Source of the DNA: Eubacteriales bacterium
GTDB lineage: Bacteria > Bacillota > Clostridia > Oscillospirales > JAAYXM01
DNA: 55,541 nt
Assembly (NCBI GenBank): GCA_045589235.1
Contig: JAZNOR010000080.1
Coordinates: 1 to 55,541, forward strand
Reading direction: 5' to 3'
The translations under genes and the position numbers were made by a program. Shown here piece by piece: positions 31,651-36,691 of the stretch (position 1 is its first letter; each line of letters opens with the position of its first letter). Under the pieces are notes generated by a model, which saw nothing but the letters and a program-made list of their open reading frames with translations, ran no database searches and had not been told where the DNA came from.

Positions 31651-31662
31651 GGGGTGTTTAAG

Positions 31663-32658
31663 ATGAAAAAGACAATTAAAATTTTAAGCTTTGTTCTCGC
31701 AATTTTAATGTTCTCTGCCTGCTCGGGCGATAAAACGCTAATCAAAGCGCGCCTTGATGACGATTGGGGCTATGTAAATGAAAACGGTAAATTTAAAATT
31801 GAAGCTGAATTTGATGAAGCGTATGCATTCTCTGAAGGTGTTGCAGTTGTTGTTGAGGACGAAAAATACGGCGTTATCAACGAAAACGGAAAGTTTAAAA
31901 TTAAGCCTGAGTATGAATATATCGGCGATTTCAAGGACGGCAAGGCGGTATTCAGTCAGGATGGCAAATACGGAATTATCAATAAAAACGGCAAAATCGT
32001 TTTGGAAGCAGCCTTTAGCTGGCTCTCTGATTTTTCAGACGGGCTTGCGGTTGCGGTCGATGATTTTGGAAAATTCGGATTCGTTAATGAAAAGGGTAGC
32101 TATGTAATTACACCGAATTTTATAGAGGCATATCCGTTTACCGAAGGTCTTGCTGCAGTTAAGATCGGTGAGAAATGGGGATTTGTTGACACCGTCGGAA
32201 ATCTTGTAATCAATGCGCAATACGACGAGGTAAGACCGTTTTCTGACGGCCTTGCACAAATCAAGGTAAATGATAAGTTCGGCTTTGTTGATAAAACAGG
32301 CGCGGTTGTTATAAAGCCTGAGCTTGAGATGGCGCTTAGCTTCTCAGAGGGACTTGCCGTTGCGTTTAAAAACTTTAAATATGGCTTTATTGATAAAACA
32401 GGTGAATTTGTTATAGATGCGCAATTTAATGTCGCAATGAGCTTTAATAACGGCGTTGCGCCAGTTACCATTCCGGGAAGCTCTTTTGTCGGTTTTATTG
32501 ATAAATCGGGTGATTTTGTTATTCCAAGTGAATACAATGTAATTTGGTATCAATGGAATCCGCAGGAATACTCTGGCTATTTGCCTGTTGAAAAAGGCGG
32601 CAAATTCGTTCTTTTAGACACGAAGGGCAGAGAAGTTTACGTTGAAGCAGATGATTAA
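31663..32658 (+). CDS. WG/KWG-repeat lipoprotein
   Basis: Lipobox LMFSAC; about 7 repeats of (W/Y/F)G(Y/F)(I/V)(N/D)xxG...FSEGLA. Confidence 0.88.
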   Translation: MKKTIKILSFVLAILMFSACSGDKTLIKARLDDDWGYVNENGKFKIEAEFDEAYAFSEGVAVVVEDEKYGVINENGKFKIKPEYEYIGDFKDGKAVFSQDGKYGIINKNGKIVLEAAFSWLSDFSDGLAVAVDDFGKFGFVNEKGSYVITPNFIEAYPFTEGLAAVKIGEKWGFVDTVGNLVINAQYDEVRPFSDGLAQIKVNDKFGFVDKTGAVVIKPELEMALSFSEGLAVAFKNFKYGFIDKTGEFVIDAQFNVAMSFNNGVAPVTIPGSSFVGFIDKSGDFVIPSEYNVIWYQWNPQEYSGYLPVEKGGKFVLLDTKGREVYVEADD

Positions 32659-32773: not shown

Positions 32774-32835
32774 CACAAAAAATATTGCGGTATTTTTGTG
32801 CGTATGTTTACAAAAAATGGCGAATTTTGTATAAT
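32774..32835 (+). promoter_or_regulatory. lrp-pnt promoter with upstream inverted repeat and Rex-like box
   Basis: TTTACA (32807-32812), 17 bp spacer, TATAAT (32830-32835); CACAAAAAATA-TTGCGG-TATTTTTGTG inverted repeat; TTGTGCGTATGTTTACAA (32796-32813) resembles the Rex box TTGTGAA-N4-TTCACAA. Confidence 0.55.
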
Positions 32836-34504: not shown

Positions 34505-34795
34505 GTGGGTTATATTTTAATTGCAGTATTTGTAATTGCGGCAATCGTCGGCTATTTCATAATCAACAAAGTGCCGACGCTTCTGCACACTCCGCTTATG
34601 TCGGGAATGAATGCGCTCTCCGGTATTACCGTACTTGGTGCACTCACAACTCTCGCAGTTACACTTAAAGATAACGATCCGATTCTATCAGTTATTGTCG
34701 GAATGCTCGCAATCATCTTTGCTATGATAAATGTAGCGGGTGGCTTTGCGGTAACGGGAAGAATGCTCAAGATGTTTAAAAAGGAGGACAAATAA
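34505..34795 (+). CDS. pntA: NAD(P) transhydrogenase alpha subunit part 2 (membrane)
   Basis: VPTLLHTPLMSGMNALSG, INVAGGFAVTGRMLKMF. Confidence 0.92.
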   Translation: MGYILIAVFVIAAIVGYFIINKVPTLLHTPLMSGMNALSGITVLGALTTLAVTLKDNDPILSVIVGMLAIIFAMINVAGGFAVTGRMLKMFKKEDK

Positions 34796-36655
34796 GTGAT
34801 TTATTATATTATAAGCGCAGTCCTCGTTTTTGGCGTACTTGTTGGCATCAGTATGATGAGTAAAGTAAAGAGTGCAAATGCAGGTAATACTTTATCCGCA
34901 ATTTGCACTGTTATTGCAATCATCGTCGTTATGTATACAAATGAAATTTTAACCTCATGGCAGGCGCTGATTGCACTTGCGATCGGTACGGTTGTGGGTA
35001 TTGTGGGTGCATATAAGGTTAAGATGATTGAAATGCCGCAGGCAGTAGCATTACTTAACGGTCTCGGAGGTCTTGCATCCGCGCTTGTTGCTATCTTAAC
35101 CATTGCACAGGCTGAGGATAAGTTTGCGGTTATCGTAGGTGCCGTGGCACTCGTTGTCGGCGCGGTTACTTTTACGGGAAGTCTTATCGCGGCAGGAAAG
35201 CTACATAAATTGCTTCCACAAAAGCCTGTTGTGTGGAAATGCCATTCCACAATCGTTACGGTTACTTTAATTGCAACGGTGCTCAGCATGATTTTAGTTC
35301 CCGATTGCATTTGGTTGATTACAATTTTATCAGCATTCTTCGGCGTTGCATTCGCAATACGCGTTGGCGGTGCGGATATGCCGATAACAATTTCGCTTTT
35401 GAACTCACTTAGCGGTGTGGCAGGCGGTATTGCAGGTATCGCGGTTTATGACCCATTACTTGTTGCAATTGGCGGTATCGTCGGCGCATCCGGTCTTCTC
35501 TTAACACAGATTATGTGCAAGGCAATGAACCGTTCACTAGTTTCAATTTTATTTGGTACAGCACCGAAAAAGCCGATTAAAGTAGTTGAAGCTAAAGCTG
35601 AGCCTGAGCAGGTTGAAGCTAAAGAAGAAGTATCAATTTCTGATATTTTAACAAATGCAAAGAAAGTAATTCTCGTTCCGGGTTACGGAATGGCACTTGC
35701 TCAGGCACAGAGCGCAGTTAAGGCACTTGCTGATAAGCTTGAAGCAAAGGGTTGTGAAGTTAAGTTTGCAATCCATCCTGTAGCCGGCAGAATGCCGGGT
35801 CATATGAATGTTTTACTTTGCGAGGTAGATGTTCCGTATGATAAGTTATATGAGATGGAGGCAATAAATGGTGAATTTGCGGAATGCGATGCAGCAATTG
35901 TAATCGGCGCAAACGATGTAACAAATCCAGCGGCAAATACCGCAGAGGGAACACCGATTTACGGTATGCCGGTACTTAATGTAGCCGATGCAAAGAATAT
36001 CATAATCTGTAACTTTGACGATAAGCCGGGTTATGCAGGCGTTCCAAACCCGTTGTATTCTGACGGTCGTGCAATACTTAAATTCGGCGATGCTAAGGAA
36101 ACGGTAGCTGAGCTTTGTGATGCAATCGGTGCGCAGGATAAACCGCAGAAGAGTGATTCGGTTTCAGATATTCTTGCAAATGCAAAGAAAGTAATTCTCG
36201 TTCCGGGTTACGGAATGGCACTTGCTCAGGCACAGAGCGCAGTTAAGGCACTTGCTGATAAGCTTGAAGCAAAGGGTTGCGAGGTTAAGTTTGCAATCCA
36301 TCCTGTAGCAGGCAGAATGCCGGGGCATATGAATGTACTGCTGTGTGAGGTAGATGTTCCGTATGACAAGCTATATGAAATGGATGCTGTAAACGGTGAA
36401 TTTTCAGAATGCGACATTGCAATCGTAATCGGCGCAAATGACATAACAAATCCAGCGGCAAATACCGCAGAGGGAACACCGATTTACGGTATGCCTGTGC
36501 TTAATGTAGCAGATGCAAAGAATATTATCATCTGTAACTTCGACGATAAACCGGGTTACGCAGGGGTTCGGAACCCGTTATATACCGATGGACGTGCGAT
36601 ACTTAAATTCGGCGATGCAAAGGAAACTGTAGCCGAGCTAACAAACTCGTTTTAA
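34796..36655 (+). CDS. pntB: NAD(P) transhydrogenase beta subunit with duplicated domain III
   Basis: MIEMPQAVALLNG and GGADMPITISLLNS membrane motifs; two copies of PGYGMALAQAQ...HPVAGRMPGHMNVLL...GANDxTNPAA...GYAGVxNPLY. Confidence 0.92.
   Translation: MIYYIISAVLVFGVLVGISMMSKVKSANAGNTLSAICTVIAIIVVMYTNEILTSWQALIALAIGTVVGIVGAYKVKMIEMPQAVALLNGLGGLASALVAILTIAQAEDKFAVIVGAVALVVGAVTFTGSLIAAGKLHKLLPQKPVVWKCHSTIVTVTLIATVLSMILVPDCIWLITILSAFFGVAFAIRVGGADMPITISLLNSLSGVAGGIAGIAVYDPLLVAIGGIVGASGLLLTQIMCKAMNRSLVSILFGTAPKKPIKVVEAKAEPEQVEAKEEVSISDILTNAKKVILVPGYGMALAQAQSAVKALADKLEAKGCEVKFAIHPVAGRMPGHMNVLLCEVDVPYDKLYEMEAINGEFAECDAAIVIGANDVTNPAANTAEGTPIYGMPVLNVADAKNIIICNFDDKPGYAGVPNPLYSDGRAILKFGDAKETVAELCDAIGAQDKPQKSDSVSDILANAKKVILVPGYGMALAQAQSAVKALADKLEAKGCEVKFAIHPVAGRMPGHMNVLLCEVDVPYDKLYEMDAVNGEFSECDIAIVIGANDITNPAANTAEGTPIYGMPVLNVADAKNIIICNFDDKPGYAGVRNPLYTDGRAILKFGDAKETVAELTNSF
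35633..36652 (+). repeat. intragenic tandem duplication with 525 bp period (two domain III copies)
   Basis: 35652-35754 is identical to 36177-36279; the remainder differs mainly at synonymous sites. Confidence 0.95.
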
Positions 36656-36659
36656 TAAT

Positions 36660-36691
36660 AAAAAAGCAAGCTTATGTTAAGCTTGCTTTTT
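36660..36691. terminator. bidirectional terminator between pntB and rodA
   Basis: AAAAAGCAAGCTTA-TGT-TAAGCTTGCTTTTT. Confidence 0.75.

Follow-up and report, generated by a model that had tools for sequence, protein, structure and literature searches.

The 55,541-nucleotide contig JAZNOR010000080.1 of a gut Eubacteriales bacterium (assembly GCA_045589235.1), referred to here as the window, harbors the genes lrp, pntAA, pntAB and pntB, and the transhydrogenase subunit PntB encoded by the last of these carries Asn-Phe-Asp (N-F-D) at the positions of the Lys-Arg-Ser (K-R-S) triad in nucleotide-binding loop E. The four open reading frames (ORFs) are placed head to tail on the + strand (Table 1) and are predicted to form a single operon encoding an intact three-subunit membrane transhydrogenase, with domain I (dI) on PntAA and two tandem copies of domain III (dIII) following the membrane domain II (dII) on PntB. 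The window PntB scored 764.4 bits against PF02233 (E 5.6e-230; curated cut-off 31.7) in two stretches, of 507.5 and 265.6 bits by part. The span 36008-36043 was translated to C-N-F-D-D-K-P-G-Y-A-G-V, and C-N-F-D-D-K-P-G-Y-A-G was found in both dIII copies, which bears out the double N-F-D of an original prediction made from the DNA letters. Of the 165 codons of a dIII copy, 37 show synonymous and 13 non-synonymous differences between the two, so both have been kept by selection.

Table 1. Features of the transhydrogenase locus, in coordinates of the window.
Feature	Position	Strand	Evidence or remark
Promoter-like TTTACA-17 nucleotides-TATAAT, 5' side of the operon	32807..32835	+	11/12 consensus; consensus match only; 10 such sites in the region vs 9.4 expected from shuffling
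Lrp/AsnC-family regulator, 149 amino acids (aa), 18 bases 5' of pntAA	32865..33314	+	Pfam PF01037 (3.9e-18), PF13412, PF13404
pntAA, dI NAD(H)-binding subunit, 385 aa	33333..34490	+	PF01262 (4.9e-57), PF05222 (2.1e-42)
pntAB, alpha2 subunit with four transmembrane (TM) helices, 96 aa, has 'LLHTPLMSG'	34505..34795	+	PF12769 (6.5e-30)
pntB, 619 aa: dII membrane domain, then two tandem dIII	34796..36655	+	PF02233; PDB chain matches 3.7e-91, 1.8e-87
dIII copy 1 and trailing linker (residues 280-454)	35633..36157	+	All dIII motifs present
dIII copy 2 (residues 455-619)	36158..36652	+	87.5% DNA identity to copy 1
N-F-D of dIII copy 1, opposite K424-R425-S426 of E. coli	36011..36019	+	Codons aac-ttt-gac; gapless alignment
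N-F-D of dIII copy 2	36536..36544	+	Codons aac-ttc-gac
Terminator-like hairpin, 14 pairs, then a T run, directly 3' of the pntB stop	36661..36691	+	

In a phmmer comparison with PDB sequences, loop E of the window was aligned without gaps, the stretch 'niiicnfddkpgyagv' falling opposite 'nvivfkrsmntgyagv' of 9l76_C and 'nvivikrgqgkgfagv' of 4o9u_B. The window PntB is gapless to the solved chains at 55-60%, and this alignment is the sole structural basis of the residue assignments made here. The translated pntB of E. coli K-12, for which the annotated record L007:4973-6361:- served as reference, has K424, R425 and S426 at the three positions, in agreement with the gapless equivalence of N-F-D and K-R-S that had been proposed. 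PntAB enzymes (EC 7.1.1.1) are recognized by K-R-S or K-R-G at loop E, whereas both copies in the window read N-F-D. Crystal structures of dIII are reported to place the K-R-S triad specifically on the 2'-phosphate. In Rossmann folds generally, an acidic residue at the adenosine-ribose position favors NAD(H) and repels NADP(H). Arg425 is named among the NADP+-contacting residues in a 2026 cryo-electron microscopy study (PMC13635403).

The altered triad was found to be shared by a large group of relatives. The 120 best-scoring of 8000 scored homologues, chosen without regard to the motif, each contain two to five tandem dIII and together gave 419 dIII units. The 416 loop-E triplets of these proteins read NYD (246), NFD (158), NLD (7), NYN (4) and NFE (1), with no K-R-S among them; three more regular-expression matches fell outside dIII and were left out of the 416. 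Over the 419 units, position 424 is Asn in 100%, 425 Tyr or Phe in 98%, 426 Asp in 99%, 423 Cys in 98% and 429 Pro in 100%. When 1.84 billion cluster representatives were searched exhaustively, 7411 relatives were obtained, and the dIII motifs of the best 150 of these were KRS (59), KRG (17), NFD (25), NLD (24), NYD (9), NRD (5) and a few others. Ten clusters were checked for the names of their representative proteins, and all ten proved to be nameless. Of the 80 genome loci retrieved with the window protein, 45 are N-x-D and belong to Clostridia, Bacteroidales, Treponema, Anaerolineaceae, Verrucomicrobiota, Actinomycetota and Halanaerobiales, 34 are K-R-[SG] and come from gammaproteobacteria, cyanobacteria, Planctomycetota and Deinococcales, and one ends before the motif. 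A genome of the window's own family (G006) encodes a 447-aa PntB with a single dIII reading NFD, and one of the same order (G036) encodes the K-R-G form. The loci nearest to that of the window are from Acutalibacteraceae and Ructibacterium genomes (77-78% identity).

Phylogenetic analysis by maximum likelihood was carried out on dII plus the first dIII of 106 full-length rows (472 columns), with motif-less or incomplete rows excluded. A single branch, with a Shimodaira-Hasegawa-like approximate likelihood ratio test (SH-aLRT) value of 99, separates the side that contains all 39 N-x-D rows from the rest. The window PntB pairs with that of G006 inside this side and has the loop-E signature C-N-x-D-x-x-P-G-Y-[AS]-G. 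The basal K-R-S proteins have C423 and P429 in common with the N-x-D side, which suggests that the change was concentrated on the triad itself. Judged from these alignments, the N-x-D proteins, mostly from anaerobes and spread over many phyla, make up a deep PntB branch that is defined here as a clade. The collection of N[FY]D homologues with their clade and neighborhoods, which had been suggested along with the original prediction, showed the motif to be clade-wide, strongly constrained and restricted to one side of the tree.

A scan of DNA with a degenerate form of the motif listed at least 122 matches, 117 of which have dIII context. The remaining five listed matches, without such context, were set aside: at least L095 and L116 are chance matches in unrelated frames of Ruminococcus sp. 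YE71 and Kluyvera georgiana, and L119 runs off the contig end. The number of matches is therefore no census of the clade. Among cultured organisms, the motif was verified in Porphyromonas uenonis, P. circumdentaria ATCC 51356, Hoylesella marshii DSM 16973, Merdimmobilis hominis NSJ-153 and Phocaeicola oris. Porphyromonas gingivalis, the pnt genes of which have been reported to be induced in biofilm (PMC5378342), did not appear in either set of 80 loci retained from the scans for relatives. Nothing was found in the literature searched that describes an N-x-D loop E, a dIII of NAD(H) type or the clade itself, a search that did not extend to subscription-journal papers on dIII structures and mutants.

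The remainder of the complex was found to be conserved. PntAA of the window contains 'AADIRP' and 'RISRAQNLD', and among the relatives, the window included, dI conserves GxGxxG together with D195 and R197 (E. coli numbering) and the hydride-transfer residues R/Q/D/S. D195, R197 and the R/Q/D/S loop were present in 100% of the PntAA proteins of both clades (36/36 N-x-D and 32/32 K-R), so that dI is an ordinary NAD(H) domain in both, as had been anticipated for the window. It follows that a dIII binding NAD(H) as well would yield no net reaction. The membrane residues were likewise intact as claimed: 'GGADMP' and 'LLNS' are present in the PntB translation, 'HTPLMS' and the PF12769 match accompany them, and dII aligns along its length with the solved chains. 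In dIII, the nicotinamide, pyrophosphate and adenine motifs GYG, HPVAGRMPGHMN, GAND, NPAA, GYAG and D450 are present in both window copies, and the corresponding positions P313-A318, H345-N356, G389-D392, N395-A398, G430-V434 and D450 are 96-100% conserved in the 419 units. This degree of conservation suggests that dIII still binds an adenine-nicotinamide dinucleotide.

Among solved structures, the best match of the window PntB was 4O9U (3.7e-91, residues 6-444), which comes, like 4O93, from Thermus thermophilus. In both 4O9U/4O93 and the window, PntAA, PntAB and PntB are encoded by three genes (dI, a 4-TM alpha2 subunit with 'HTPLMS' and the beta subunit), Asn is found in TM9 where E. coli has His91, and the GGADMP, GYG, HPVAGRMPGH, GAND and GxAG motifs are shared. 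However, 4O9U has a K-R-G loop E and one dIII, whereas the window protein has N-F-D and two dIII, and the deepest split of the tree that has support separates the two. E. coli PntAB (b1603/b1602; PDB 9L76 and related entries) is homologous to the window proteins throughout (1.8e-87) and has the same D195 and R197 in dI, but it consists of two subunits with a single dIII and has His91 in the proton path, in contrast to the three subunits and two dIII of the window. In loop E, K424-R425-S426 of E. coli gives a charge of +2, and N-F-D-D-K-P of the window a charge of -1.

The original prediction had also taken the duplicated dIII as a sign of a new system. N-x-D proteins were found to carry one to five dIII heads, and some 20 of their 45 loci encode a single dIII. 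Two dIII also occur in a few K-R-S proteins; this does not support such a sign. The existence of single-head N-x-D and two-head K-R-S proteins indicates that the motif and the tandem heads are separable, although the majority of the multi-head proteins seen here are N-x-D. It is a matter of speculation whether a looser grip on the nucleotide is functionally tied to extra heads. Individual proteins with unusual head arrangements were also observed. P0140 is a K-R type with two tandem dIII, one K-R-S and one K-R-G, P0216 is a fragment with two K-R-S copies, and a 668-aa protein at G740:C5:11939-13906 was assigned as a two-dIII K-R-[SG] type from length and score only. The highest head count was seen in P0033 (971 aa), which has five tandem dIII, all N-Y-D, and lacks dII before the first of them (first motif at residue 193).

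Genomic organization around the 45 N-x-D loci was surveyed over flanks of up to 6 kb. The only recurring families were PntB, PntAA (39), PntAB, Lrp (11) and an ABC transporter (8); no alternative redox or sensor partner was found to recur beside these loci. The proposal that the complex might run a different ion-coupled redox reaction or serve as a sensor therefore found no recurrent partner gene to go with it. An Lrp-like ORF adjoins pntAA in 11/45 N-x-D loci, compared with 0/34 K-R loci. As for the Lrp gene, which had been counted as another mark of an undescribed system, earlier work reports that E. coli Lrp binds 5' of pntA/pntB and has a positive effect on pntA (PMC2689187). The Lrp gene heading the window operon thus parallels a control of pntA already reported in E. 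coli and does not mark a new system.

The window assembly (1.5 Mb in 94 contigs, 85.7% complete, 41.6% G+C) was found to contain no second pntB. It encodes an Nfn-type NADP-linked enzyme (TIGR01316, 592.6 bits), which indicates that the organism has an NADP(H) pool to connect to. In a set of 61 relatives, 52 have an Nfn-type gene that scores above the TIGR01316 cut-off, among them the window genome and G005, G006 and G018, which carry pntB; RnfD is present in 58. The distribution of pntB is patchy, with 5 of the 61 genomes (the window's included) and 0/4 of the same genus, and no pattern of replacement between pntB and Nfn or RnfD was seen among the 61. The patchy pntB beside widespread Nfn and RnfD suggests that the operon is an accessory addition and not a replacement of either. 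On a wider scale, pntB was found above cut-off in 54/401 genomes of the window's phylum (44 N-x-D, 5 K-R[SG], 1 N-R-S and 4 undetermined fragments or pseudogenes) and in 26/301 genomes of a second phylum. Two full pntB genes in one genome were seen in 0/54 and 0/26 of these, with less than one chance overlap expected in the first sample; one pntB locus per genome fits one shared role, in an overlap test without power.

Some single loci are mentioned for completeness. In a 1.6-Mb genome of the window's phylum, pntB remnants with TGA and TAG stops (G164:C1:468900-469707) resemble a pseudogene. A lone dIII-like ORF (203-aa frame, 115.6 bits) was observed at G705:C1:4333892-4334233, 3.3 Mb from the full pntB of that genome. 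In the window itself, a 334-aa ORF at 31654-32658 (+), just 5' of the operon, starts like a lipoprotein, with a hydrophobic stretch and then a Cys, and carries many 'WG(F/Y)(V/I)(N/D)..G' repeats.

Since an enzyme exchanging NAD for NAD would have no net reaction, we favor a working proton-coupled NAD(H)/NADP(H) transhydrogenase with a new, looser and weakly electrostatic hold on the adenosine end, an explanation that we consider about evenly balanced between right and wrong. Hydride would pass between the NAD(H) of dI and the NADP(H) of dIII in a reaction coupled to proton movement, and the adenosine end would be held differently, by far less positive charge than K-R-S enzymes offer. It might be contacted by Asn424, by Lys428, which is enriched in the clade, and by backbone amides of the P-G-Y-A-G turn, and Asp426 may either bond the free 3'-hydroxyl or lower the affinity. 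Together with Nfn and Rnf in the same anaerobe, the enzyme may trim the NADPH/NADH balance in either direction, and through the Lrp-type regulator encoded next to it, its expression would follow the supply of amino acids, as that of pntAB does through Lrp in E. coli.

Several observations weigh against this explanation. Taken by itself, the loop would be read as a 2'-phosphate pocket that is gone, with two basic residues lost, an invariant acidic residue gained and an aromatic or aliphatic residue at Arg425, and the same pattern in any other Rossmann-type site would be read as NAD(H) specificity. Asp426 is 98-99% conserved, and an acidic residue there, by the general Rossmann rule, disfavors NADP(H). 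Loop charge was compared over 607 non-identical dIII units (482 N-x-D, 119 K-R and 6 unclassifiable), in groups set by the motif itself, so that only the non-motif columns are informative. Positions 424-429 carry a net charge of 0 or -1 in 462/482 N-x-D units (range -2 to +1), compared with +2 or +3 in 118/119 K-R units. The drop of 2-3 units equals the charge of a 2'-phosphate and would fit the loss of its pocket. The looser and faster nucleotide exchange supposed relative to the K-R-S enzymes is a matter of pure inference as to kinetics, and no published assay of any N-x-D clade member was found in the literature. The only paper found to use the term "KRS motif" with transhydrogenase describes it as a part of the NADPH site that acts together with loop D to select NADP(H) over NAD(H) (PMC9529548).

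The proviso attached to the original prediction, that a nearby Lys could compensate for the lost phosphate contacts, held in part. Lys or Arg is found at position 428 in 76% of N-x-D units compared with 10% of K-R units, and the enriched residue could act as a partial substitute contact. However, 82/482 N-x-D units (17%) have no basic residue at 425, 427 or 428, and 29 of those 82 also lack one at 399; there is no universal compensating charge, which is a further point against the transhydrogenase explanation. N-R-D, N-K-D and one N-R-S variant were found within the N-x-D clade, and indicate that basic residues are tolerated at the triad site; like the enrichment at 428, they are small points in favor of the transhydrogenase explanation. 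The N-R-S variant is an intact N-x-D-clade PntB (L254; G194:C4:18400-20700) that reads C-N-R-S and has D450N in addition; it is 72% identical to the protein of a congeneric sister species (L253; G069), which reads C-N-L-D. The C-N-R-S of this genome may have arisen in nature by a partial reversion of the triad.

The strongest competitor, which we regard as rather unlikely, is that of the original prediction: dIII would truly have lost its preference for NADP(H) and would bind NAD(H) or some other nucleotide, in a complex that is not an NADP transhydrogenase but has an unrecognized role. Asn424 and Asp426 would then bond the 2'- and 3'-hydroxyls of the ribose, and the residue at 425 (Tyr, Phe or Leu in 471/482 N-x-D units) would stack on the adenine; the complex might serve as a nucleotide-gated proton path, or might relay hydride to an acceptor whose gene does not lie nearby. 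This agrees with the near-invariance of N424 and D426, with the lowered loop charge and the 17% of units free of basic loop residues, and with an acidic residue at the ribose position as the general mark of an NAD(H) site. It also agrees with the separation of the clade from all K-R proteins at a single branch (SH-aLRT 99), where C423 and P429 of the basal K-R proteins point to a change focused on the triad. Against it stands dI, which is of NAD(H) type in 36/36 clade members, so that NADH plus NAD+ would undergo no net chemistry and could only dissipate the proton gradient. The strong purifying selection and the expansion to as many as five heads point to a reaction that is productive, the clade shows an enrichment of Lys428, and a partner gene does not recur in the 45 loci.

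An acidic residue and a phosphate ligand would be reconciled if Asn424 and Asp426 were ligands of a Mg2+ ion carrying the 2'-phosphate of NADP(H), for an invariant Asn and Asp one residue apart are chemically suited to a divalent cation. Alternatively, dIII may bind some other adenine dinucleotide that differs at the adenosine ribose, which would be compatible with the retained adenine (D450), pyrophosphate and nicotinamide motifs. We hold this pair of proposals to be improbable, since they draw on chemistry alone and no result points to a metal site or a third cofactor; bacteria are not known to have a physiological redox dinucleotide besides NAD and NADP, which counts against the third cofactor. 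That the dIII copies are decayed or regulatory remnants of a catalytically dead complex would account for the absence of K-R-S from both copies, but it is hardly credible in view of the 96-100% conservation of the other catalytic and binding motifs in the 419 units, the excess of synonymous (37) over non-synonymous (13) codon differences between the copies, and the age and wide spread of the clade.

Transhydrogenase is a textbook model of a proton pump that is driven by changes in binding energy where a nucleotide binds. Studies of its NADP(H) site have been confined to K-R-S enzymes, and the N-x-D proteins are a second branch of comparable depth, which accounts for 39/106 full-length tree representatives and for 44/54 of the PntB-bearing genomes in the 401-genome phylum sample. 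Members with the site rebuilt around Asn and Asp are common in anaerobes of the gut, rumen, mouth and digesters. If dIII of these proteins does bind NADP(H), they would represent a new mode of NADP(H) recognition with an acid at the phosphate pocket, probably with altered affinity and turnover, and this could bear on why the N-x-D branch often multiplies its heads. If a different nucleotide is used, the redox models of many anaerobes would change. Were dIII to be of NAD(H) type or otherwise blind to the 2'-phosphate, an ancient branch would consist of proton-coupled machines with an unrecognized reaction or role, and the name "NAD(P) transhydrogenase subunit beta" would be mistaken in thousands of genome annotations.

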